64,000 bases of DNA, taken from contig DASRJI010000101.1 of the NCBI GenBank assembly GCA_035649535.1, forward strand, positions 1,994 through 65,993. The letters are read 5' to 3'. This document shows, in pieces, positions 14,809 to 39,915 of the stretch. The stretch's first letter is position 1. Each line of letters begins with the position of its first letter. Under the pieces are notes generated by a model that worked only from the letters and a program-made list of their open reading frames with translations, searched no databases and was not told the DNA's origin. This DNA comes from Acidimicrobiales bacterium (lineage in GTDB: Bacteria; Actinomycetota; Acidimicrobiia; Acidimicrobiales; JACDEA01). The translations under genes and the position numbers were made by a program.

Positions 14809-15750
14809 TCAGGCCCTTCCGGCGGCGGCGAACAGTGCGTCGGCGCTCAGCACGCCGAGTGTGCCGGCCGGGCCGCGCACGGCGACTGCGGTCTGACCCT
14901 CGGCCAGCATGGCGGCGAGGGCATCGCGCAGGGTGGTGCCGACGTCGATCGCCGGCAAGCCGTCGGCCGAGCCGGGCGAGACGTCGGCCTCGCTCACGCG
15001 GAGCACGCTGAGCCGCTTGATGCCGCGGTCGGCGCCCACGAAGTCGGCGACAAACGGCGAGGCCGGAGCGCCGAGCACCTCGGTCGCCGGTGCGTACTGG
15101 GCCAGGCGCCCGCCTTCGGCCAGTACGGCGATGCGGTCGCCGAGACGGATCGCTTCGTCGACGTCGTGCGTCACGAACACGACGGTCTTGCGCAGCTCCT
15201 GCTGCAACCGCACGAACTCGCCTTGCAGGCGGTCGCGCGTGATCGGGTCGATCGCGCCGAAGGGCTCGTCCATCAACAGCACCGGCGGATCGGCGGCCAG
15301 CGCGCGTGCCACGCCGACGCGCTGGCGCTGCCCGCCCGACAGTTGGTGCGGGAAGCGACGGGCGAAGCGACCGGCGTCGAGGCCCACGAGATTGAGCAGT
15401 TCGTCGACGCGCTCGTCGATCCGTCGGCGGTCCCACCCGAGCAGGCGCGGCACCGTGGCCACGTTGGTCGCGACGGTTTGGTGTGGGAACAGGCCAACCT
15501 GTTGGATGACGTAACCCATGCGCCGCCGCAGTTGCACGGGATCGACGGTCGTGACGTCTTCGTCGTCGAGGAAGATGCGCCCGGTGGTCGGCTCGACGAG
15601 CCGGTTGATCATCTTCATGGTCGTCGTCTTGCCGCAGCCCGACGGGCCGACGAGGACACACGTCTCGCCGGTGGCGATCTCGAGGGTGAGGTTGTCGACC
15701 GCGACGGTGCCGTCGGCGTACCGCTTGGTCACGCCTTCCAGACGGATCAC
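14809..15750 (-). CDS. ABC transporter ATP-binding protein, Opu/ProV type with C-terminal CBS-like region
   Basis: Walker A GPSGCGKTT, signature LSGGQRQRV and Walker B LLMDEPFGA. Confidence 0.85.
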   Translation of the reverse strand: MIRLEGVTKRYADGTVAVDNLTLEIATGETCVLVGPSGCGKTTTMKMINRLVEPTTGRIFLDDEDVTTVDPVQLRRRMGYVIQQVGLFPHQTVATNVATVPRLLGWDRRRIDERVDELLNLVGLDAGRFARRFPHQLSGGQRQRVGVARALAADPPVLLMDEPFGAIDPITRDRLQGEFVRLQQELRKTVVFVTHDVDEAIRLGDRIAVLAEGGRLAQYAPATEVLGAPASPFVADFVGADRGIKRLSVLRVSEADVSPGSADGLPAIDVGTTLRDALAAMLAEGQTAVAVRGPAGTLGVLSADALFAAAGRA

Positions 15751-28322: not shown

Positions 28323-28967
28323 CTAGTAGCGCTCCGGCGCGGTCGACGGGCCGATGTGCTTGTCGAGCCAGGAGTTGAGGGGTCGGGCGGCGACGAACAC
28401 GTCGACAATGCGCTGCTTGGCCTTGGCGGTTCCGAGCCACGCCGCGACCGGCCACTGCTTCCACGTGATGAGGCCCTTCTGGCGCAACAGCTCGATACGT
28501 GGGTGGTCCTTGGGGTAACCCTTCGGCGCGGTCTTGAGCGCGTCGTGACCGGCGACCTCGAGCCCCGCCTTCCGGCTCGCCTCGACGAGCTTCTCGAGTT
28601 GTGGGCCGGTCTTGTTGTCGGCGACCGCCGCCCGGAACCGCTCGAGCTGGTCGGGCATCGGCATGTAGTAGCCACTGCCGACGCCGAGCCCCTCGCTCGA
28701 CAGTGAGATGTAGCCCCCGGTGGCGACGGTGGCGGCGATGTTGGTCTTGTACGGCGACTTGTCAGCGCTGAACCGCACGTCGCGGTAGGGCCGGAACACC
28801 TTCCCCTCGCCGAAGTCCTTCGCCAGTTCGGCGAGTAGTTCGTCCATCGGGCCACGGACGTTCTTCTCGTAGTCGGCCTTGTGGTCCTGCCAGTACGCCT
28901 TCGTGTTGTCGGCCTCCAGGCCCTCGAAGAACTCGATCGCCTCGGCCGGCCATCCACGAAACGCCAC
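28323..28967 (-). CDS. DUF2461 (TIGR02453) family protein
   Basis: FFEGLEADNTKAYWQDHKADYE, RPYRDVRFSADKSPYK and GGYISLS motifs. Confidence 0.75.
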   Translation of the reverse strand: MAFRGWPAEAIEFFEGLEADNTKAYWQDHKADYEKNVRGPMDELLAELAKDFGEGKVFRPYRDVRFSADKSPYKTNIAATVATGGYISLSSEGLGVGSGYYMPMPDQLERFRAAVADNKTGPQLEKLVEASRKAGLEVAGHDALKTAPKGYPKDHPRIELLRQKGLITWKQWPVAAWLGTAKAKQRIVDVFVAARPLNSWLDKHIGPSTAPERY

Positions 28968-28976
28968 GCCTGTCTC

Positions 28977-29357
28977 CTATTCCTCGTCCACGTAGATCGT
29001 GACCGCATCCGAGCAGTTGCGGGCGACGATCACGACCAACTCCTCGGTGGTCGACGCGTTTTGCTCGACGTGCACCTCGCCGGCGGGGATGTACACGAAG
29101 TCGCCGGCCGCCGCGTCGAGCGTGTTCTCGACGCCGGTAGGCCCCGACGAGAAACTCGCCTGGCCCGACAGCACGTAGATCGCGGTCTCACAGTCGCCGT
29201 GATGGTGCCGACGCGTGGCGGCGCCCGGTGCCGTCGTGACGACCGCTGCGTAGATCCCCGCGCTACCTACGGTGTCGCGACTGATCGCGACTGCTCGCTC
29301 CATATCGCCGTTGTGGGTCGGCGTCCGCAGCCACTCAGTCGCGCCGACACGTCGCAT
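28977..29357 (-). CDS. cupin domain protein
   Basis: HHHGDCETAIYVLSG ... GDFVYIPAGEVH two-motif cupin signature. Confidence 0.7.
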   Translation of the reverse strand: MRRVGATEWLRTPTHNGDMERAVAISRDTVGSAGIYAAVVTTAPGAATRRHHHGDCETAIYVLSGQASFSSGPTGVENTLDAAAGDFVYIPAGEVHVEQNASTTEELVVIVARNCSDAVTIYVDEE

Positions 29358-29403: not shown

Positions 29404-31563
29404 TTGGTCGAATCCGGAGGCCGCTGGGAGCGGGTCGTGCTCGATCGCCGGGCGCGCGCGGGCGCCTACGCAGTCGCCGGGACGGTGGCCTTCTACGGCG
29501 TGCTCCAGTGGTTCTGGCCCGCGCCGATCGGCGTGCTGCTGCAAGGCGTGGTGATCGGCGGCCTCACGTCGCTCATCGCGTTCGGCATCGTCCTCGTCTA
29601 CCGATCGAACCGCATCCTCAACCTGGCCCAGGGCGACCTCGGCGGGCTGCCCGCGTCGTTAGCGGTGCTGTTGATCCTCGATACCGGGCTGCCCTACGTG
29701 GTCGGGTTCCTCGCCGGGTTGGTTGCCGCGATCGCGCTGGGCGCGATTGTCGAGTTCGTCTTCATCCGTCGGTTCTTCAAGGCGCCGCGGCTGATCCTCA
29801 CCGTCGTGACCATCGGCGTCTCGCAGATCCTCGCTGGCGGCGCGACGGCGCTGCCGCGGGCGTTCGGGCTGACGGTGCCGCCGCAGGACTTCACGTCGCC
29901 GTTCGAATTCACGTTCAACGTCGGGAACACCGTGTTCCATGGCGACGAGGTCGTCGCCATGCTGGCGGTGCCCATCGTCATCGTCGCCCTCGTCGCTTTC
30001 TTCCGATACACGAATGTCGGCATTGCCATCCGGGCCAGCGCCGACAGCGCCGACCGGGCCGCGCTGCTCGGCGTGCCGGTGAAGCGCATCCAGACGGTGG
30101 TGTGGATCGTGGCGGCGACGCTGGCCTACGTCGCCATCTTCCTGCGGGCCGGGATCCTGGGCCTCCCACTGGGCAGTGTCCTCGGGCCGACGATCTTGAT
30201 CCGGGCGCTGGCCGCCGCCGTCGTCGGCCGCATGGAGCGCCTGCCGACCGTGCTGCTCGCGTCGATCGCGCTGGGCGTCCTCGAGGCGTCGATCATCTAC
30301 TCGACCGGTCGGTCGAAGCTCATCGACCCGATCGTGTTCCTCGTCATCCTCGCTGCGCTCTTGCTCCAGCGGCGCCGTGCCTCGTCGCGTGTCGACGATG
30401 ATCAAGCGTCGAGCTGGCACGCGGCGCGTCAGGTGCGACCGATCCCGCGGGAGCTGGCCCGCGTATCCGAGGTCCTGTGGGGATCGCGCCTGTTCACCGG
30501 CGCGCTTCTTCTACTCGCCGTGCTGGCGCCGGCGTACTTCAACGACGGGCGGCTGCACCTGGCGTCGGTCGTCATCATCTTTGCGATCGTGTGCCTGTCG
30601 CTCGTCGTGCTGACCGGCTGGGCCGGCCAGGTGAGCCTCGGCCAACTCGCGTTCGTGGGGATTGGCGCCGCGGTGGGCGGGTACGTGACCGCCGATCGGG
30701 GCTGGGACATGACGCTCGCCCTGGTGATCGCCGGCCTGGCCGGCGCGCTGGCCGCGGTGGTGATCGGGCTGCCGGCGTTGCGGATACCCGGGCTGTTCCT
30801 CGCCGTCGTCACGCTGTCGTTCTCGTTGGCGACGTCGTCGTACCTCCTCGACGAAGACTTCATCCACTGGATACCGGCGCGCCTGTCGATCGCCCGCACG
30901 CCACTGTTCGGGCGCATCGAGGTGAATACCGAAGCGCGCTTCTTCGAGCTGTGCCTTGCTGTGCTGCTCTTGACGATCGCCGCGGTGCGCGGCGTGCGCC
31001 GCAGTCGCGCCGGGCGCGTGCTCATCGGCGTACGCGAGAACCCTCGGGCCGCGCAGTCCTACGGCGTCAACGCCACGACCGTGAAGCTCACCGCCTTCGC
31101 GCTGTCCGGGTTCATCGCCGCGGTCGCCGGCGCGTTGTTCGTCCACCTCCAGGGCGACCTCACTGCCAGCGCGTACAGCGTCGACGCCAGCCGCCGGGCG
31201 TTCGTCATGATCGTCATCGGCGGCCTCGGGTCGATACCGGGCGCGCTCATGGGCGCCACGTTCATCCAGGGTGTCGACTACTTCCGATCGCTCTTCCCCG
31301 AAGTCGTCCGCCCGTACTTGCAGTTCATCACCAGCGGCATCGGGTTGATCTTCGTTCTCCTGTTGTTGCCCGGCGGCTTCAGCCAGCTGTACTACGGGGC
31401 GCGCGATCGCCTGCTGCGGTGGATCGCCCAGCGGCGCGGAATCGACGTTCCCAGCATGGTGGCCGACCGCCGCGTCGACGTCAGTGCCGGCGTCATGCCT
31501 GACGACGAAGTCCTGGCCGAAGGCCTCTCGCACGCAGTGGAACAACTGGAGCCGGTGCCGTGA
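29404..31563 (+). CDS. fused branched-chain-amino-acid-type ABC permease (LivH-like + LivM-like)
   Basis: The N-terminal half resembles LivH (GLTSLIAFGIVLVYRSNRILNLAQGD). The C-terminal half resembles LivM (LTGWAGQVSLGQLAFVGIGA). The TTG start is uncertain. Confidence 0.8.
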   Translation: MVESGGRWERVVLDRRARAGAYAVAGTVAFYGVLQWFWPAPIGVLLQGVVIGGLTSLIAFGIVLVYRSNRILNLAQGDLGGLPASLAVLLILDTGLPYVVGFLAGLVAAIALGAIVEFVFIRRFFKAPRLILTVVTIGVSQILAGGATALPRAFGLTVPPQDFTSPFEFTFNVGNTVFHGDEVVAMLAVPIVIVALVAFFRYTNVGIAIRASADSADRAALLGVPVKRIQTVVWIVAATLAYVAIFLRAGILGLPLGSVLGPTILIRALAAAVVGRMERLPTVLLASIALGVLEASIIYSTGRSKLIDPIVFLVILAALLLQRRRASSRVDDDQASSWHAARQVRPIPRELARVSEVLWGSRLFTGALLLLAVLAPAYFNDGRLHLASVVIIFAIVCLSLVVLTGWAGQVSLGQLAFVGIGAAVGGYVTADRGWDMTLALVIAGLAGALAAVVIGLPALRIPGLFLAVVTLSFSLATSSYLLDEDFIHWIPARLSIARTPLFGRIEVNTEARFFELCLAVLLLTIAAVRGVRRSRAGRVLIGVRENPRAAQSYGVNATTVKLTAFALSGFIAAVAGALFVHLQGDLTASAYSVDASRRAFVMIVIGGLGSIPGALMGATFIQGVDYFRSLFPEVVRPYLQFITSGIGLIFVLLLLPGGFSQLYYGARDRLLRWIAQRRGIDVPSMVADRRVDVSAGVMPDDEVLAEGLSHAVEQLEPVP

Positions 31564-34502
31564 GCCGGCGCCTGTCGCTGCGCGTCGTCACCGAAGGCGC
31601 GCCCGTCCTCCCGCTGCTGGTCCTGTTCGGGCTCAACGCGGTCGATGAGCTCGATCGCAGCGCGTACAACGTGCTGATACCGGAGATCCGGAAGGCGTTC
31701 GACCTCAGCCTGTCCGGCATCACTGCGGTTACCGGCGTGGCGTTGATCGCCGCGTACCTGTTGCAGATCCCGATCGGGTATTACGCCGATCGCCACAGCC
31801 GCGTTCGCATCGCCGGCACCGGCGCCGCCGTGTGGTCGTTCTTCACCCTGCTTACGGGCGTGGCGCCGACGCTGGCGTTGTTGGCTTTGGCTCGCGGCAT
31901 GACCGCGATCGGGCGGGCCGTCAATGACCCCACCCACTTGTCGCTGATCTCCGACTACTACGAGCCCGACGTGCGAGTGAAGGCGTACGGGTTCCACCGC
32001 TTCGCCAACCCGACCGGCCAGATCGTCGGCGCGGCGGGCGGCGGCCTGCTGGCCTACTTCTTCGGTTGGCGCACGCCGTTCATCCTCTTCGCCATCCCGA
32101 CGATGATCCTCATCGCGTTCGCCATCCTCCGGTTGCGCGAACCGGTGCGGGGCGGCATCGACCGGCGCGTCCACGGCGCGTCCGACGACGTGGCCGACAC
32201 CGAGGAGACGCCGCCGTCGTTCGGTGAGGGCTGGCGGATCCTCAACCAGGTCAAGACCCTGCGGCGGATCTGGTTGTCGCTGCCGTTCCTCGCCACGGCG
32301 ATCGCCGGGCTCGGCATCCTGCTGTCGACGTACTACAAGGACGTGTTCAATCTCAACGAGGCACAGCGCGGCATCGTGATCGCGGTGACCCAGCCGTTCG
32401 AGTTCCTCGGCCTGTTGGTCGGCATACCGATCGCCTCGCGCTTGATGCGGCGCGACCCGAGTCTGGTCCTCAAGTTCCTCGCCCTCGCTGGCGTGATCGT
32501 GTCGGCCGGCCTGGCGCTCCTCGCCGGCGCGCCGAACCTCGGCATCGCCATCGCCGCCAACATGCTCGTCGTCGGCGTACTCGGCGTGCTCCTGCCGGGG
32601 ATCTACGCAACCCTTTCGTTGGCCATCCCGCCCAAGGCCCGCTCGCTCGGGTTCTCGATCGGCAGTCTCTACGTCGTCGTCGGGTTGCCGATCGTGTTCG
32701 TGATCGGCGGCATCGCCGACAGTGTCGGCATTCGCGGCGGCATTGTGATGCTCACACCGGTGTTCCTCGTCGGCGCGCTGATCCTGGCGTCGGCCGGCAG
32801 TTTCCTCACGAGCGATATCGACAAGGTGCGGACCGCGGCCGTCGCCCAGGCCGAGGTGCTCGCGGCGAGGCGGCAGGGCGCGGTCAAGCTCCTGCTCGTC
32901 AAGGGGCTCGACGTCGGCTACGACGGCGTGCAGGTGCTGTTCGGCGTCGACTTCGAAGTCGACGCCGGTGAGATCGTCGCCCTCCTCGGCACCAACGGCG
33001 CGGGCAAGTCGACCTTGCTGCGCGCCATCTCGGGCCTGGTGCCGGCGTCGGCCGGTGCTGTTGTGTTCGACGGGGAGGACATGACGTTCGCGCCGCCGCA
33101 CGAAGTCGCGGCGCGCGGTGTGGTGCAGGTACCTGGCGGTCGCGGCGTGTTCCCAAGCCTGACGGTCTCCGAGAACCTGCGCATCGCCGGGTGGCTGTAC
33201 CTGAAGGAGACCGACTACCTGAAGCGGGCCACCGAGGAAGTGCTCGGGTTCTTCCCCGTGCTGCGCGAACGATGGGACCAGCCGGCCGGCAACCTGTCCG
33301 GCGGCGAGCAGCAGATGCTCACGCTCGCCCAGGCGTTCATCGCCCGCCCCCGGTTGCTGATGATCGACGAACTGTCGCTCGGGCTGGCGCCGACGATCGT
33401 CGAACAGCTGCTCACGATCGTGAAGGCGATCCGAGACCGCGGCACGACGATCATCCTGGTCGAGCAGTCGGTGAACGTCGCCCTGACGGTGGCCGAGACC
33501 GCCTACTTCATGGAGAAGGGCGAGATCCGGTTCCGCGGTCGCACCGACGAGTTGCTCCGCCGCCCCGACGTGTTGCGGTCGGTGTTCCTCGAGGGCGCGG
33601 GGTCGGTCAACGGCCTGAACGGAAAACACACCGCGGGAAAGCGACGCGTCGTGCGAGCGGTCGAGGCCAACGGCGACCGCCCGGTTGCGCTCGAGGTCAG
33701 GGGCGTGCGGAAGCGCTTCGGCGGCATCACTGCGGTCGACGAGGTCGATCTCACCCTTCATCAAGGTGAGATCCTCGGCGTGATCGGTCCCAACGGTGCT
33801 GGCAAGACGACGCTGTTCGACCTCATCTCCGGTTTCGTACCGGCGGACGGCGGGCGGGTGACACTGATGGGTGAGGACGTCACCGACATGGGTCCCGACG
33901 CCCGCGCCCGCCGCGGCCTCGGCCGGTCCTTCCAGGACGCGCGGCTGTTCCCCGCCCTGACGGTGACCGAGACGATCAAGCTGGCGCTCGAACGCCACGT
34001 GCTGGTCCGTGATCCGATCGCCGCCGCGTTGTTGCTCCCGGCGGTCGCCGATTCCGAGCGCGATGTCGCGGCGCGCGCCGACAAACTGATCGAGCTCATG
34101 GGCGTCGGCGCCTTCGCCGACAAGTTCGTGTCGGAGCTGTCGACGGGGAGCCGGCGGATCGTCGACCTGGCGTGCGTGCTGGCGCATGAGCCCGACGTCA
34201 TCCTGTTCGACGAGCCGTCGTCGGGCATCGCCCAGCGCGAGACCGAGGCACTCGGGCCGCTGTTGTTGCGCATCCGTGACGCGACCAGCGCCAGCCTCCT
34301 CGTCATCGAGCACGACATGCCGCTCGTGACGTCCATCTCCGATCGCCTCCTCGCCCTCGACATGGGTCGCGTCATCGCGGCCGGCTCACCCACCGACGTC
34401 GTGCGGCACGCCGCGGTGGTGGAGTCGTACTTGGGCACCAGTACTGCAGTCATCGCTCGCTCGGGCACCCGCCCGCGAGCCGCGCGCAAGGGGAAGTCCT
34501 GA
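31560..34502 (+). CDS. three-domain fusion: MFS-like membrane domain + LivF-like ATPase + LivG-like ATPase
   Basis: About aa 1-440 form a 12-TM MFS-like region (GYYADRHSRVR motif A). A LivF-like ATPase follows (GTNGAGKSTLL, LSGGEQQML, LLMIDELSLGL). A LivG-like ATPase follows that (RKRFGGITAV, GPNGAGKTTLF, LSTGSRR, ILFDEPSSG). Confidence 0.8.
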   Translation: MSRRLSLRVVTEGAPVLPLLVLFGLNAVDELDRSAYNVLIPEIRKAFDLSLSGITAVTGVALIAAYLLQIPIGYYADRHSRVRIAGTGAAVWSFFTLLTGVAPTLALLALARGMTAIGRAVNDPTHLSLISDYYEPDVRVKAYGFHRFANPTGQIVGAAGGGLLAYFFGWRTPFILFAIPTMILIAFAILRLREPVRGGIDRRVHGASDDVADTEETPPSFGEGWRILNQVKTLRRIWLSLPFLATAIAGLGILLSTYYKDVFNLNEAQRGIVIAVTQPFEFLGLLVGIPIASRLMRRDPSLVLKFLALAGVIVSAGLALLAGAPNLGIAIAANMLVVGVLGVLLPGIYATLSLAIPPKARSLGFSIGSLYVVVGLPIVFVIGGIADSVGIRGGIVMLTPVFLVGALILASAGSFLTSDIDKVRTAAVAQAEVLAARRQGAVKLLLVKGLDVGYDGVQVLFGVDFEVDAGEIVALLGTNGAGKSTLLRAISGLVPASAGAVVFDGEDMTFAPPHEVAARGVVQVPGGRGVFPSLTVSENLRIAGWLYLKETDYLKRATEEVLGFFPVLRERWDQPAGNLSGGEQQMLTLAQAFIARPRLLMIDELSLGLAPTIVEQLLTIVKAIRDRGTTIILVEQSVNVALTVAETAYFMEKGEIRFRGRTDELLRRPDVLRSVFLEGAGSVNGLNGKHTAGKRRVVRAVEANGDRPVALEVRGVRKRFGGITAVDEVDLTLHQGEILGVIGPNGAGKTTLFDLISGFVPADGGRVTLMGEDVTDMGPDARARRGLGRSFQDARLFPALTVTETIKLALERHVLVRDPIAAALLLPAVADSERDVAARADKLIELMGVGAFADKFVSELSTGSRRIVDLACVLAHEPDVILFDEPSSGIAQRETEALGPLLLRIRDATSASLLVIEHDMPLVTSISDRLLALDMGRVIAAGSPTDVVRHAAVVESYLGTSTAVIARSGTRPRAARKGKS

Positions 34503-36295
34503 TGGATAGCTGGAGAGACGTCACCATCGGTGACCTGACCAACGCATTGCGGCGGTACTTGCCGTTCCTTGCTGCGGTCGTTGCCGTGATGCTGGTCGCG
34601 CTGCTGCTGCCAGGTCACGGCGATCGCAAGGACGACGTCAAGGCCGCCGCCGCGTCGCTCAACGACACGAGTGCGGACAGCGGCGTCACCACGACCGTCC
34701 CCGCCGGTGACGCGGTGACCACCGAAGGCACCGGCGGACTAGTGGACACCGGCGGCGTGACGGCGCGGACACCTGGCACCGGCGCGGTCAAGCTCCCGTC
34801 GGGGGCAGTAGTCGGCCCCGACTGTGACCCGGCCACCGGCCGCATCAAGGTGCTGTCCCTCGTCGCGCCGCCGTGCATGCCGCCGTTCAGCGGGAACAAC
34901 GGCGGCGCTACCGCGTTGGGCGTCACCGCCAAGACGATCAAGGTCATCTACTACCAACCGCAAGAGGATCCAGCCACGACCGCCGCGCTCACGGCCGCCG
35001 GGGCCAACAACACACCGGACCAGCAGTGGCAGACGACCGTTGACTACGTCGACTACTTCAACAAGTTCTACGAGACCTACGGCCGCAAGGTCGTTCTGGA
35101 GCGGCTGCAAGGTAGCGGCGACCCGAGCGACCCGGCGGCGGCCAATGCCGACGCAGCGACCGTCGTGAGCAAGCATCCGTTCGCGGTGTTCGGTGGCAAC
35201 CTGCCGTCGTTCTACGAAGTGCTGGCCCGCAACAAGATCCTGTGCATCTGCACCACATCGCAGCCGCAGGAGACCTACGAGAAGAACGCGCCGTACGTCG
35301 GGTACACCCCGCTCATGGCGTCGACCCAGGCCTACATCCACCGCGCCGAGTACATCGGCAAGCGCCTGGCCGGCCGGAACGCCGTGTTCGCCGGCAGCCC
35401 GGTGCTCAAGGCCAAGCCTCGCGTCTTCGGGCTCCTCTATTACGAGACCCCCGACAAGGCCTACCGGGCCGGCGCCGAGTTCTTCCGCAAGGAGATCACG
35501 AAGTACGGGACCAGTTTCAAGGTCGTGGTCGCGTATCGCGGGCCGCCTGACTACGCCGGGCTCCGCGAGGACGTGCGCCCGCTCATCCAGAAGATGAAGG
35601 ACGAAGGCGTGACGAGCATCGCCTGCGCGTGCGACCCCATCAGCCCCGCGTTGTTCACCCACGAAGCGACGAACCAGCAGTACCAGCCGGAGTGGATCAT
35701 CACCGGTTCGGCGCTCACCGATACCGACCTGTTCGCGCGCACGTACGACCCGTTGCAGTGGTCGCACGCCTTCGGCATCTCGCTGCTCACGGCGCGACTG
35801 CCCAAGGTGCAGGGCGAGGCGTGGAAGATCTACCAGTGGCACTTCAACAAGACGCCGCCGGCCGACAACCAGTACGGCATCCTCTATCCGATACCGCTGG
35901 TGTTCTTCACCGGCCTGCACCTCGCCGGTCCGAACCTGACGGTGCAGAGCTGGCAGAAGGGCTTGTTCAGCTTCCCGGTGACGAACAAGGGCCGCAAGAC
36001 GCAGCCCACGACCTCATACGGGCAACACAACGTGTGGTCGATGGTCGACTACACGGGGGCCGACGACGTCACCGAGATCTGGTGGGACCCCAACACCGTG
36101 GGACCCGACGAGCTCGACAACCAGGGTGCGGGGATGTATCGCTACGTCGACGGCGGCAAGCGGTACTTACCTGGCGAGCACCCGCGTTCGGATCCCAAGC
36201 CGTTCGTGACTGCGGGCACGGTGACGATCTACGACCAACCGCCGCCGGGTGAGACGACGCCGAATTACCCGCACACGCCGTACCACAACCCCTAA
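34502..36295 (+). CDS. membrane-anchored periplasmic-binding-protein (type 1, Liv-like) component
   Basis: The ATG overlaps the previous TGA by 1 nt. It has an N-terminal TM anchor, a low-complexity linker and a large soluble domain. The call rests mainly on operon context. Confidence 0.6.
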   Translation: MDSWRDVTIGDLTNALRRYLPFLAAVVAVMLVALLLPGHGDRKDDVKAAAASLNDTSADSGVTTTVPAGDAVTTEGTGGLVDTGGVTARTPGTGAVKLPSGAVVGPDCDPATGRIKVLSLVAPPCMPPFSGNNGGATALGVTAKTIKVIYYQPQEDPATTAALTAAGANNTPDQQWQTTVDYVDYFNKFYETYGRKVVLERLQGSGDPSDPAAANADAATVVSKHPFAVFGGNLPSFYEVLARNKILCICTTSQPQETYEKNAPYVGYTPLMASTQAYIHRAEYIGKRLAGRNAVFAGSPVLKAKPRVFGLLYYETPDKAYRAGAEFFRKEITKYGTSFKVVVAYRGPPDYAGLREDVRPLIQKMKDEGVTSIACACDPISPALFTHEATNQQYQPEWIITGSALTDTDLFARTYDPLQWSHAFGISLLTARLPKVQGEAWKIYQWHFNKTPPADNQYGILYPIPLVFFTGLHLAGPNLTVQSWQKGLFSFPVTNKGRKTQPTTSYGQHNVWSMVDYTGADDVTEIWWDPNTVGPDELDNQGAGMYRYVDGGKRYLPGEHPRSDPKPFVTAGTVTIYDQPPPGETTPNYPHTPYHNP

Positions 36296-36304
36296 GTCGG
36301 CGAC

Positions 36305-37447
36305 TTAGTCCAGATACCGGAGCGTGCCGCCGGGCACGAGGTGAAGTTGGCGCGCGATCGCGGCCAGGTCGGCGGCCGCGATCGTGCCGAACACCCGCAC
36401 GTAGCGACCGCCGCCAATGAGGGCCCGCACCTCGGCCTGCCGTCCGCTCAGGACGATCTCACCGGGACCGACGGCACCGAGGTCGACCGACTCGTTGTTG
36501 CGATCGACCTGCCACACGGGCTGCCCCTGGAGGGTGGCGCCCCGGTCGACGACGACGATGTCGACGCCGCGCGTGAAGACGTCGCTCACCGACGCGCGCC
36601 GGAAGCCCTCGCGCGTCGCGTCGCTGAAGTTCTCGGGCTGGGGCGGGACCACGGCGAAGCGACCGACGAGCGTGAAACCGGCGGGGGGTTGGTCGAGCTG
36701 CCAGAACTGGCCTGGCGGCACCGACGCCGGGTCGACGGGACGCGTCGATCCGCCACCGCTCTTGACGTCGAGCGTCGGCGGGCCGATGGCGAACGTGTCG
36801 TCGCTCGGCGTGCCCGTCGTATCGACCTTCACCGCGACGCGACGCACGTCGCGGGTGCCGGACTTGACGACCAGTTCCTCGAGAAGGAGGCCGTCGTGGT
36901 CGACGCAGCTGTCGACGTAGCGCTTTGTGGTGGCGCGATAGAGCGACGCGGCGATGAGGCTGTCGCGGCTGCGGAACACCTGACACGTCCGGCCCGCGAC
37001 CTCGCGCCGCTCTCGTCGTTCGAGGTGATGGACGCGAAGCGCATCGGCCACCGCCGTGTCGAGCCGGATGTCAGGTGCCGCCGCGTCGGGCGGCTGCGCG
37101 CTCACCAGGGCCCCGGAACCCGGCCGCTGGATCGCGCTGCGCCCGAGTATCCATCTGTCGAGTGACTCCGGCTCCTGGCCCCGCCGGGCCGCGACAACCG
37201 CGTCGAACGGCCGGCGCACGACGAAACGCTCGGTGCTGACGCGCACCGCGCCGCTGACCCGCTCCTCGAGTCGGTACTGGATGCTGTACGCCGGCGGCGG
37301 CGGGCCGAACCCGACCGGCTGACCGGCGCTGAGCGCGGTCGAGCCGTCGCGACCAATCCTCGCCGGGCGCCGATCGTTGATCGTCGCCGCGACCCACATG
37401 CCGACGATGACGGCGAGGATCAGTGCGGCGACGCGACCCCGGCTCAC
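36305..37447 (-). CDS. hypothetical N-terminally anchored extracytoplasmic protein
   Basis: It has a single N-terminal TM helix (VAALILAVIVGMWVAA) and a 4-nt overlap with the upstream gene. I recognise no motif in it. Confidence 0.5.
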   Translation of the reverse strand: MSRGRVAALILAVIVGMWVAATINDRRPARIGRDGSTALSAGQPVGFGPPPPAYSIQYRLEERVSGAVRVSTERFVVRRPFDAVVAARRGQEPESLDRWILGRSAIQRPGSGALVSAQPPDAAAPDIRLDTAVADALRVHHLERRERREVAGRTCQVFRSRDSLIAASLYRATTKRYVDSCVDHDGLLLEELVVKSGTRDVRRVAVKVDTTGTPSDDTFAIGPPTLDVKSGGGSTRPVDPASVPPGQFWQLDQPPAGFTLVGRFAVVPPQPENFSDATREGFRRASVSDVFTRGVDIVVVDRGATLQGQPVWQVDRNNESVDLGAVGPGEIVLSGRQAEVRALIGGGRYVRVFGTIAAADLAAIARQLHLVPGGTLRYLD

Positions 37448-38562
37448 TGCGGCGCGTTTCCGCGCCGCGCCCGGGCCCGCCGCGTCACCGGCATCCGTCG
37501 ATACGGCGGCTTGCGGTGATCACTCGACCACGGCGCCGGTGGCGCCAGGGTGACCGTCGCCAGTCCCAGCAGCACGGCGTCGTAGTTCACCCGCCACCCG
37601 TTGAAATCGCGCCACGCTTGATCGCGATCGCGCTTGAGCGGGACGCCGGCGTCGGCCATGGTCGCCAGCGCTTCGTCGAACTCCTCGCGCGTAATCGATG
37701 TCTCGTCGTCCGGCGCGGGATCGGCGTCGTACGGGATGTTGAAGAAGTCGGCGATGCGCCGGAGGGCGAGAAACCCGGCCCGGATGCAGAGCTGGGCGCG
37801 CGGCGAGTTGGGGGTGTCGACCGACGACTCCATCAGGGCCACGCCGTCGAGCACCGTTCCCGCCGCGGTGACCCACGAGCGCCCTGGCAGCGGCGACCGG
37901 TAGAAGGGGAGGGCGGCCAGGCTCAGGTGGCTCTCCTCGACGTCGACGAACCACGCCTCCCAGTCGCTCCACAGGTCGTCGAGCTGGTCGAAGGCGCCGA
38001 TGGCGTGGAAGCGGATGATCATCGTCGGCGCCCACGGCGCTCGTCCCTCGCGACCAGCGCGACTTGCGAGCAGCGCAACCTGCGCTTCGCGGCGAGCGAA
38101 GGCGGCGTACATGCTCGGTAGGTAGGTGATCAGCAGGGCGAGCGACGCGATCCCGAGGGCGGCTTCGGAGAACGCGAGGAAGGTCGCCGGGAGGCCGCTG
38201 GGGTGGGCAAAGCCGAGCGTGAACATCGACGAGCCACTGGCGTTGATCGCGGCGCGCCATCCCTGGTCGTTCACGGACCAGAACATGACCGTGTAGGAGG
38301 CGCCGATGACGGTCAGCCACACGACCGGGAGGAACAGCAGGCTCAGCGGCGCGAACAGGGCCAGCGTGTCGTCGGTGGCCCGCTCGGTGCGACGAAGACG
38401 GGCCACCCGCACGATGAAGAACCGGACGACGAGGAACGCCGCCCGCGAGAGCCGGACCTGGGCGGCCCGGGGGAGCACGAAGGTGTGGACGGCCGACAGT
38501 GTCGTGCTCGCCGCGGTGAGGGCGGCGATGGCGAAGGCCGCTATGCGGAGAACGAGCACCAC
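37444..38562 (-). CDS. membrane protein with K-channel-like pore module (degenerate filter) and cytoplasmic domain
   Basis: It has an outer helix, then a pore-helix/filter-like segment INASGSSMFTLGFAHPSGLP, an inner helix and a soluble tail of about 200 aa. Confidence 0.5.
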   Translation of the reverse strand: MVLVLRIAAFAIAALTAASTTLSAVHTFVLPRAAQVRLSRAAFLVVRFFIVRVARLRRTERATDDTLALFAPLSLLFLPVVWLTVIGASYTVMFWSVNDQGWRAAINASGSSMFTLGFAHPSGLPATFLAFSEAALGIASLALLITYLPSMYAAFARREAQVALLASRAGREGRAPWAPTMIIRFHAIGAFDQLDDLWSDWEAWFVDVEESHLSLAALPFYRSPLPGRSWVTAAGTVLDGVALMESSVDTPNSPRAQLCIRAGFLALRRIADFFNIPYDADPAPDDETSITREEFDEALATMADAGVPLKRDRDQAWRDFNGWRVNYDAVLLGLATVTLAPPAPWSSDHRKPPYRRMPVTRRARARRGNAPQ

Positions 38563-38592
38563 TCCTCGTTAGCAGACGCGTACGATCGCGTC

Positions 38593-39915
38593 GTGCGGTC
38601 GACCGAACCGCTCCGACCTACGGCGGCCACCACGTTGACCCCGCTCGTCGCGGCGTTCTTCGGCGACAAGCCGCTACCCGTGAAGTTGCGGTGTTGGGAC
38701 GGCAGCGTCATCGGCGATCCGGCGGCGCCGGCCACGCTCGTGATCGCCTCGCCCGATGCGGTCCGCCGGCTCTTGTGGGCGCCCAACGAGTTGGGCCTCG
38801 GCCGGGCCTACGTCGCCGGCGACCTCGACGTCGACGGCAACGTCTTCGACGTGCTCTCGCTGCGTGACGTTCTCGCCGATCGCGGCGACGGCCTCAGGAT
38901 CGCCCTGGACTGGCGCGGCCGGCTGAGGGCACTGCGCGCGGCGCGGGCGGTTGGCGCGCTGGGCCGCCCGTTGCCGCCGCCGCCCCAGGAGGCCCAGCTG
39001 CGCGGTGGGCGTCACTCGAGGGCGCGGGACGCCGCCGCCGTCTCGCATCACTACGACCTCTCCAACGACTTCTATCGCATGGTGCTCGGGCCCACGATGA
39101 CGTACTCGTGCGCGTACTTCCCGGATGAAGACGCCACGCTCGATGAGGCGCAGCGCTACAAGTACGACGTCATCGCTCGCAAGCTCGAGCTTACGGCCGG
39201 GATGCGACTGCTCGACGTCGGTTGCGGCTGGGGCGGCATGGTGCTGCACGCGGCGGAGGAGTACGGCGCGCGCGCGGTGGGTGTCACGCTGTCGCAGCGG
39301 CAGGCCGAGCTGGCGACCGAGCGCGTCCGGGTCGCGGGGCTGAGCGATCGCATCGAGATCCGGGTGCAGGACTACCGCGACATCAACGACGGCCCGTTCG
39401 ACGCCATCAGCAGCATCGGGATGTTCGAACACGTCGGCCGGGATCAGCTGGCCGAATACTTCGGCTGCCTGCACCGTCTGCTCGCCCCGGGCGGCCGCTT
39501 GCTCAACCACGGCATCTCGCGCCCGGGCGACGGCGAGGTCGGCTCGCGCGCTGCGTTCGACCGCAACGGGTTCATCGAGCGCTACGTGTTCCCCGACGGC
39601 GAACTGCACGAGGTCGGCACTGTCGTGAGCCTCATGCAGGAGCGCTTCGAAGTTCGCGACGTCGAGTCGCTGCGCGAGCACTACGCCCGCACGCTGCGTC
39701 ACTGGGTCGCCAACCTCGAGGCCAACTGGGACCGCGCCGTCGATCTCGTCGGCCCGTCGGCTCGCATCTGGCGGCTCTATATGGCCGGGTCGGCCCTCAA
39801 CTTCGAAGCCGGCCGCACGTCGATCCACCAAGTTCTCGCCGTGAAACCCCACGCCGATGGCACCAGCGGTATGCCGCTGAACCGCGCCTCGTTGTTGCTA
39901 CAGCAGTCGCAGTGA
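38593..39915 (+). CDS. cfa: cyclopropane-fatty-acyl-phospholipid synthase family SAM methyltransferase
   Basis: HYDLSNDFYRMVLGPTMTYSCAYF, LLDVGCGWGG and the HVG...Y region. I moved the start to the GTG at 38593. Confidence 0.85.
   Translation: MRSTEPLRPTAATTLTPLVAAFFGDKPLPVKLRCWDGSVIGDPAAPATLVIASPDAVRRLLWAPNELGLGRAYVAGDLDVDGNVFDVLSLRDVLADRGDGLRIALDWRGRLRALRAARAVGALGRPLPPPPQEAQLRGGRHSRARDAAAVSHHYDLSNDFYRMVLGPTMTYSCAYFPDEDATLDEAQRYKYDVIARKLELTAGMRLLDVGCGWGGMVLHAAEEYGARAVGVTLSQRQAELATERVRVAGLSDRIEIRVQDYRDINDGPFDAISSIGMFEHVGRDQLAEYFGCLHRLLAPGGRLLNHGISRPGDGEVGSRAAFDRNGFIERYVFPDGELHEVGTVVSLMQERFEVRDVESLREHYARTLRHWVANLEANWDRAVDLVGPSARIWRLYMAGSALNFEAGRTSIHQVLAVKPHADGTSGMPLNRASLLLQQSQ

Follow-up and report, generated by a model that had tools for sequence, protein, structure and literature searches.

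A Liv-type ABC importer of Acidimicrobiia with a Spinster-like MFS domain fused to its LivF and LivG ATPases

A Liv-type ATP-binding cassette (ABC) importer encoded by three genes was analysed in a 64,000-nucleotide (nt) stretch of DNA, referred to here as the window, from an Acidimicrobiales bacterium (GCA_035649535.1, contig DASRJI010000101.1, positions 1,994-65,993 of the forward strand; G+C content of the window ~69%). All three open reading frames (ORFs) lie on the plus strand. ORF1 (29404..31563, 719 amino acids (aa), TTG start) encodes a fused LivH-LivM permease, ORF2 (31560..34502, 980 aa, GTG start) a triple fusion of a major facilitator superfamily (MFS) domain with LivF and LivG, and ORF3 (34502..36295, 597 aa, ATG start) a membrane-anchored binding protein. 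ORF1 and ORF2 overlap by 4 nt and ORF2 and ORF3 by 1 nt, which agrees with the overlaps of 1-4 nt given in an initial annotation of the locus; overlaps of 4 nt and 1 nt were also seen in other assemblies. The operon formed by the three ORFs is real and translationally coupled, and comes from an actinobacterium of the Acidimicrobiia type. By its profile matches and structural models, this operon is a complete predicted binding-protein-dependent importer of the HAAT/Liv type, with LivH-LivM membrane domains, LivF and LivG ATPases and an anchored binding protein of the LivJ fold. In textbooks, ABC (primary) and MFS (secondary) transporters stand as alternatives, and one would not expect to find them joined covalently in a conserved chimera.

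The permease is recognised by two profile collections, as a LivH-LivM fusion of the length and position first annotated. Pfam BPD_transp_2 (PF02653) matches ORF1 twice (E 1.2e-52), and NCBIfam distinguishes a LivH/UrtB-like half (aa 45-322, nt 29536-30369) from a LivM/UrtC-like half (aa 351-663, nt 30454-31392), both under the equivalog cut-offs. About 18 hydrophobic segments were found in a hydropathy scan. The protein ends in a cytoplasmic C-terminal tail (aa 664-719), which up to ~aa 689 aligns into the linker between LivHM and LivG in the second layout described below (type B). The true permease start may be further downstream than the proposed TTG.

In ORF2 a Spinster-like MFS domain (aa 1-412, nt 31560..32795) is followed by a LivF/UrtE-type nucleotide-binding domain (NBD; aa 446-680, nt 32895..33599) and a LivG/UrtD-type NBD (aa 710-960, together with a short tail and the stop codon nt 33687..34502), so that the union of all three domains in one 980-aa protein, as initially annotated, is upheld by Pfam and NCBIfam domains and by a 12-helix AlphaFold2 model of the MFS part. 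The first NBD matches NCBIfam LivF (248.7 bits, aa 447-678) and UrtE as well as Pfam ABC_tran. The second matches NCBIfam LivG (313 bits over aa 711-960, under the cut-off of 362), ABC_tran and, at aa 937-960 of ORF2, the BCA_ABC_TP_C tail (PF12399). Walker A, signature and Walker B motifs are intact in both (GTNGAGKST, LSGGEQQ and LLMIDE in LivF; GPNGAGKTT, LSTGSRR and ILFDEP in LivG). The H-loop histidine is present in the LivG domain (IEHD); the LivF domain has VEQS where this histidine is expected, and LivF itself carries glutamine there. In the livHMGF order of Escherichia coli G precedes F, and the F-before-G order of the window, also remarked on earlier, is the reverse. The MFS domain and LivF are joined by a helical connector (aa 413-445, nt 32796..32894), which AlphaFold2 models as a continuation of transmembrane helix 12 (TM12), a single helix running from aa 391 to 444. 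LivF and LivG are joined by a poorly conserved tether (aa 681-709, nt 33600..33686).

Membership of the N-terminal domain in the MFS superfamily (TC 2.A.1) is supported by fold, profile and motif A. Pfam MFS_1 covers aa 23-361 with E 2.9e-40 (138.7 bits, cut-off 33.4). The AlphaFold2 model of the domain, made from its alignment with 41 stand-alone relatives, has 12 transmembrane (TM) helices with a predicted local distance difference test score (pLDDT) of 94.8 and a predicted template modelling score (pTM) of 0.90. Foldseek matched this model with probability 1.0 to many MFS structures, the top match being human Spns1 (9boi, template modelling score (TM-score) 0.78/0.81), followed by SPNS2, HnSpns and DgoT. 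A profile of the family of this domain, compared with the PDB, matched HnSpns (6e8j, E 2.3e-29), and in the profile alignment the TM1 'DR', motif A and 'DYYPPxxR' all correspond; reading 'DR' and 'DYYPPxxR' as marks of the Spinster family comes from this alignment and not from a curated rule. The initial view of the domain as MFS-like thus stands, and its kinship in sequence and structure is Spinster-like. In a single-sequence NCBIfam search its best family was the anion:cation symporter group, under the cut-off. The domain shares the 12-TM fold with the Spinster transporters (HnSpns 6e8j, Spns1, SPNS2; TC 2.A.1.49) at TM-scores of 0.75-0.81, but it has only 17-22% identity to them and is fused to ABC ATPase domains. 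Human Spns proteins have been solved with bound lysophosphatidylcholine or sphingosine-1-phosphate, and the window domain resembles them in fold and sequence.

The sequence of the MFS domain carries the marks of a conserved membrane protein. Motif A (GYYADRHSRVRI) lies at aa 73-84 in the TM2-TM3 loop, TM1 has DELDR, and a DYYEPDVR motif follows TM4. Residue invariance was assessed across 43 fused homologues and, separately, in an alignment of the window MFS domain with the 41 stand-alone relatives. D77, R78 and R81 are invariant in the fused set, and R78 and R81 also in the alignment with stand-alone relatives. The residues invariant in both are N26, D29, E30, D32, R78, R81, R112, H126, D132, Y134, R139, R171, R197, R270, R361 and, within the connector, D419.

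The binding protein was modelled with AlphaFold2 from 37 homologues (pLDDT 83, pTM 0.79). The model consists of an N-terminal TM helix (aa 9-35, nt 34526-34606), a disordered linker (aa 36-93) and a folded alpha/beta ectodomain (~aa 100-597). The ectodomain resembles LivJ/LivK-type cluster-B binding proteins (Foldseek probability 1.0, E 1e-13 to 1e-10, 11-16% identity); the matches 4n0q, 4eyg, 1z15, 4n03 and UrtA include binders of leucine, aromatic acids, fatty acids and urea. Pfam and NCBIfam gave no match to ORF3, nor did a 37-sequence profile compared with the PDB. The protein has 724 homologues, mostly annotated 'hypothetical', some of which carry Peripla_BP_6 (PF13458). Its first cysteine is residue 108, and it therefore has no lipobox. 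Of the initial description as a TM-anchored binding protein without a lipobox, the anchor, the missing lipobox and the fold are borne out, but no sequence profile supports the identity. At the level of fold only, ORF3 is a predicted type I, LivJ-like cluster-B binding protein anchored as a type II membrane protein.

Two further conserved features of ORF3 were observed. A cytoplasmic juxtamembrane motif, RYxPF (consensus RYRPF), occupies residues 18-21 before the TM anchor, and four cysteines are conserved (C108, C125, C248 and C250, the latter two in 'CICTT'). The conservation of the motif and the cysteines suggests a specific role for the anchor, together with disulfides or a metal or ligand site.

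The fusion is widespread. The 980-aa protein is represented by at least 120 full-length cluster representatives with 61-81% identity, drawn from JGI, ENA, NCBI and Logan assemblies, and all of them have MFS_1 and two ABC_tran domains. A scan of GTDB, with each species represented by one genome, gave at least 540 relatives, some of them possibly NBD-only matches; all locus counts given here are among the matches listed, which comprise at least 79 loci (70 full-length and 9 ended by a contig edge). The survey answers the earlier suggestion that the taxonomic spread of the MFS-NBD-NBD architecture be followed: nearly all loci come from metagenome-assembled genomes (MAGs) of Acidimicrobiia, labelled by their depositors as Acidimicrobiales, Microthrixaceae, Iamiaceae or Aquihabitans-type. 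In several genomes the protein is present as two or three paralogues (for example L001/L058, L019/L049/L071 and L054/L066/L079). The closest relative among the matches listed is L001, from an uncultured actinomycete MAG, with 80% identity.

Gene content is constant. In tblastn searches the LivHM gene was found directly upstream of MFS-F-G wherever the flank is present, the binding-protein gene was found downstream in 31 loci and upstream in 21, and the five modules occur together in 52/52 loci with sufficient flank. By sequence comparison, the layout is not a one-off; Liv-type importers of Acidimicrobiia commonly take this form. The initial annotation had spoken of a five-gene system 'collapsed' into three. 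Three genes there are, but the arrangement is common in the class and has a second permutation, [MFS-F][HM-G].

Since a stop or frameshift near position 32880 had been named at the outset as something that could undo the fusion, an artefact has to be considered, that is, a frameshift, misassembly or gene-calling error joining a separate MFS gene to livF-livG. Many database relatives do carry frameshifts (L083, L086 and L091 from nanopore MAGs; P0252, P0256, P0320 and P0376). The known frameshift artefacts, however, split the gene or run through it, and none makes the fusion. The MFS-LivF junction is intact and in frame across dozens of independent assemblies, both short- and long-read, the ORF is continuous in at least 79 loci, and the junction, whose linker is 63% identical, surpasses the MFS domain in conservation and is modelled as a single helix. 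An artefactual origin is therefore given practically no weight.

The erroneous gene models among the relatives fall into two kinds. In L083, L086 and L091 the gene seems to be split, either into MFS and F-G or into MFS-F and G. These 'split' variants were traced to nanopore indels, as neighbouring pieces share 34-50 nt, and the frame is likewise interrupted in the HM and binding-protein genes of L083 and L086. Apparent HM-MFS mega-fusions (P0320, P0376, P0336) are frameshift read-throughs with Arg/Pro-rich junk segments, and P0252 and P0256 were discounted as read-through proteins with junk segments as well. Because of indels in long-read MAGs, counts of architectures taken from protein databases without a check of the DNA would mislead.

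A second layout was uncovered by an HMMER search with the MFS domain only against 1.84 billion cluster representatives. At E < 1e-30 this search found 295 clusters, the lengths of which cluster near 1000, 680-720 and 420-480 aa. In the type B operon, [MFS-LivF][LivHM-LivG], the same domains are distributed over two polypeptides accompanied by two binding-protein-like genes, again with 4-nt overlaps. Type B was found in two independent short-read assemblies (L087, 7001-11898; L090, 6001-11033), and 12 more MFS-F representatives from separate 50%-identity clusters fit it, 11 of them ending naturally after LivF and 1 cut inside. In L087 a 495-aa neighbour is a distant homologue of the window binding protein (hhalign probability 96.9%). 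LivM- or LivHM-LivG fusions go by the annotation name 'branched-chain amino acid ABC transporter permease/ATP-binding protein'. The fusions in L087 and L090 are of this type, whereas in the window LivG is placed on the MFS-F polypeptide instead. In both layouts, [HM][MFS-F-G] and [MFS-F][HM-G], the attachment of MFS to LivF is the constant feature. A possible third permutation is seen in a single example, the partial 650-aa protein P0390, in which the C-terminal part of a LivG-type NBD is followed by an Ala/Lys/Thr-rich linker and MFS, with no obvious frameshift junk.

Genuine stand-alone relatives of the MFS domain (40-49% identity) are found outside ABC operons, which suggests that a working Spinster-like carrier was recruited into the importer. 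Beside these relatives lie TetR and P450 genes, a gene for a multicopper oxidase or one for a cupredoxin. One locus, L085 (9080-13627), has a stand-alone Spinster-like MFS gene beside TetR and P450 genes. Some 4 kb off is a more conventional Liv-type set, in which a 645-aa fused LivHM is accompanied by a 237-aa NBD and a Peripla_BP_6 protein, along with 434- and 183-aa proteins of unassigned function. The locus may represent an unfused counterpart.

Compared with LivJ/LivK-LivHMGF of E. coli and with UrtABCDE, the window system has the same LivH/LivM membrane domains, LivG (with BCA_ABC_TP_C) and LivF NBDs and a cluster-B binding-protein fold. It differs in the fusion of H with M and of F with G, in the extra 12-TM MFS domain on the N-terminus of F, and in a binding protein that is TM-anchored, ~140 aa larger than LivJ and without a Pfam match. 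In terms of the HAAT/Liv family (TC 3.A.1.4), the two membrane domains and the LivG and LivF NBD pair are present, and the binding protein is recognised at the level of fold only. The ABC part would work like a conventional Liv importer, with the binding protein docking on LivHM and the F/G heterodimer binding and hydrolysing ATP to power solute uptake.

For the MFS fold the initial annotation had offered a second translocation path, a membrane tether or a substrate sensor; ranked here, the path comes before the sensor and the sensor before the tether. The reading favoured, tentatively and at somewhat under an even chance, is that the MFS module is not a dead anchor but an active carrier, which would give the complex a second path for translocation, coupled to protons. 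It would probably handle the substrate of the importer or a metabolically linked one; from the Spinster kinship, an amphipathic or lipid-like substrate is a weak possibility. The rigid TM12-LivF helix of the model would let the carrier and ABC cycles influence each other. This reading is consistent with a transporter-like constraint on the domain, in which motif A, the TM1 D/E/D-R cluster and DYYxPxxR do not vary between fused and stand-alone members, recur in HnSpns and belong to a canonical MFS fold. Signs of coupling are the identity of the connector (63%, against 18% in the F-G tether) and the retention of MFS on LivF in both layouts. Several points weigh against it. The conserved MFS motifs would be equally expected of a conformational sensor and do not prove transport, the rigid linker could be a mere spacer, and no coupling-helix-like element was identified between the MFS domain and the NBDs. 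The gene neighbourhoods of the at least 79 loci are also uninformative, with only the three cassette genes conserved and CoA ligases no more frequent than by chance.

The rate at which the modules change bears on whether the MFS domain does more than hold the complex together. Median identities to the window, computed over the 52 loci with sufficient flank, are 45% for LivHM, 44% for MFS, 69% for LivF, 64% for LivG and 38% for the binding protein. The conservation of MFS equals that of LivHM, and so it behaves as a working membrane domain rather than a decaying anchor. A passive anchor or scaffold, which would only keep the F-G tandem at the membrane by LivHM or hold the TM anchor of the binding protein, is considered improbable. 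It would fit an ABC importer that is complete by itself, a fusion which fixes a 1:1 stoichiometry, and the conserved TM segment and RYxPF motif of the binding protein, which could need a docking partner. It does not account for invariant polar and charged intramembrane residues and invariance in both motif-A-like loops, nor for an MFS domain evolving no faster than LivHM. One or two helices would suffice for the purpose without a full MFS fold, and conventional Liv ATPases need no such anchor.

Mean pairwise identity among orthologues is 0.63 in the connector, compared with 0.52-0.58 in the MFS domain, 0.79 in LivF and 0.18 in the F-G tether. A conserved connector modelled as a rigid helix, an MFS domain that is always on an NBD, specifically LivF, and an ABC importer that is complete without MFS would all be expected if the domain were a regulatory 'transceptor'. 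Such a module would have given up bulk transport of substrate. It would respond to a ligand, a lipid, the membrane potential or the proton gradient, and gate the ATPase by passing its conformational state on through the TM12-LivF helix, by analogy with the regulatory domains of MetN, ModC or OpuA. This is regarded as unlikely, although less so than a passive anchor. The residues invariant in the stand-alone, presumably transporting relatives are all kept, 12 TM helices would be an expensive sensor, and literature searches turned up no MFS domain that regulates an ABC ATPase. To our knowledge there is no precedent for it.

The type B polypeptides, MFS-NBD(F) and LivHM-NBD(G), resemble an unequal pair of 'half-transporters', and this likeness favours a further possibility, in which the F/G pair would energise the MFS domain besides or in place of LivHM, as ArsA does for ArsB. 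The continuous helix joining TM12 to the NBD in the AlphaFold2 model and the conserved cytoplasmic loop between TM6 and TM7 (60% identity, R197/G198/R202 invariant) point the same way. In ABC importers, however, the power stroke of an NBD usually reaches the membrane through a coupling helix seated in a groove of that NBD, and these grooves are presumably taken by LivH and LivM; the acidic residues of the proton-coupling type present in stand-alone relatives are kept. An ATP-driven MFS of this kind is the least likely of the functional alternatives. ArsAB, in which an ATPase can energise a secondary carrier, and LplT-Aas, which unites an MFS with an enzyme, are conceptual precedents. Neither has a sequence relationship to the window system; ArsA is not an ABC ATPase, and LplT-Aas lacks the ATPase pair and the binding protein.

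A related, and scarcely more probable, view extends the model of the rigid TM12-LivF helix to the whole complex: MFS and LivHM would be one composite machine, with the LivF/LivG cycle driving or gating the rocker-switch of MFS through this helix. If true, the composite machine would amount to an MFS transporter that is primary-active or gated by ATP. An amphipathic ligand could then be handed over by the tethered binding protein and relayed between the two membrane modules. Should the MFS module be active, as favoured here, or regulatory, it would represent a new way for proton-driven and ATP-driven transport to influence each other, and the operon would offer a tractable genetic context for bacterial Spinster homologues.

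Clues to the substrate were sought in profiles and neighbourhoods. In NCBIfam LivG, LivF, LivH, LivM, UrtB, UrtC and UrtD all scored under their curated cut-offs, and equivalog-level identity was not reached; UrtE scored 310.8 against a cut-off of 285.8, but this score sums both NBDs. A urea transporter was rejected on account of this summed score, UrtB and UrtC scores far under their cut-offs, and the lack of a sequence-level match to solved binding proteins, UrtA included. When genes were called in the at least 79 loci and the resulting 570 proteins clustered, only the three cassette genes were conserved. Next in frequency came a 410-aa secreted protein of unassigned function, present in 10 loci, and, in 9/79 loci, an AMP-binding CoA ligase. 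Lipid-metabolism neighbours were discarded as a substrate clue, since they, like the CoA ligase, are no more frequent than chance would give in these genomes. None of these lines names a substrate: the equivalog cut-offs were missed (bar the inflated UrtE score), the neighbourhoods are not conserved and there is no Rfam family. An amphipathic solute is weakly hinted at by the Spinster kinship and by binders of hydrophobic ligands among the structural neighbours of the binding protein.

Public annotation recognises parts of the system. ORF2-type proteins are named 'MFS transporter' by PGAP and 'ABC-type branched-chain amino acid transport system ATPase component / MFS permease' by IMG, and the binding protein is 'hypothetical'. 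Current annotation hides a complete ABC importer, so metabolic reconstructions will mis-score uptake capacity in Acidimicrobiia, an abundant, little-cultured actinobacterial class of soil, freshwater and marine habitats. Full-text literature searches, with TCDB outside their reach, found no paper describing an MFS-LivF/G fusion. The sequences themselves are already public.

The remainder of the window was inspected around the operon. No Rfam family or riboswitch was found anywhere in the window by an Rfam scan, a promoter search found no sigma-70-like site, and tblastn showed that the window holds no second Liv-type cassette. The only other ABC ATPase detected in the window by tblastn is an ABC-type NBD at 15088-15747 (-), 31% identical to the LivG-like domain. 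Upstream of the operon and divergent from it, a 126-aa Cupin_2 protein is encoded at 28977-29357 (-), 46 nt from the proposed TTG start of the permease, with a DUF2461 protein behind it at 28323-28967 (-). Downstream, a 380-aa ORF (36305-37447, -) is convergent to the operon; it has an N-terminal hydrophobic segment and no Pfam match. Judged by eye, it resembles the ~410-aa protein family which adjoins the cassette in 10 related loci, and may be linked to the cassette or merely syntenic. Further on, a mechanically called 570-aa ORF (38203-39915, +) contains a cyclopropane/mycolic-acid synthase (CMAS) domain at aa 272-544. Since it overlaps another ORF at 37444-38562 (-), its translation probably begins far downstream of 38203.

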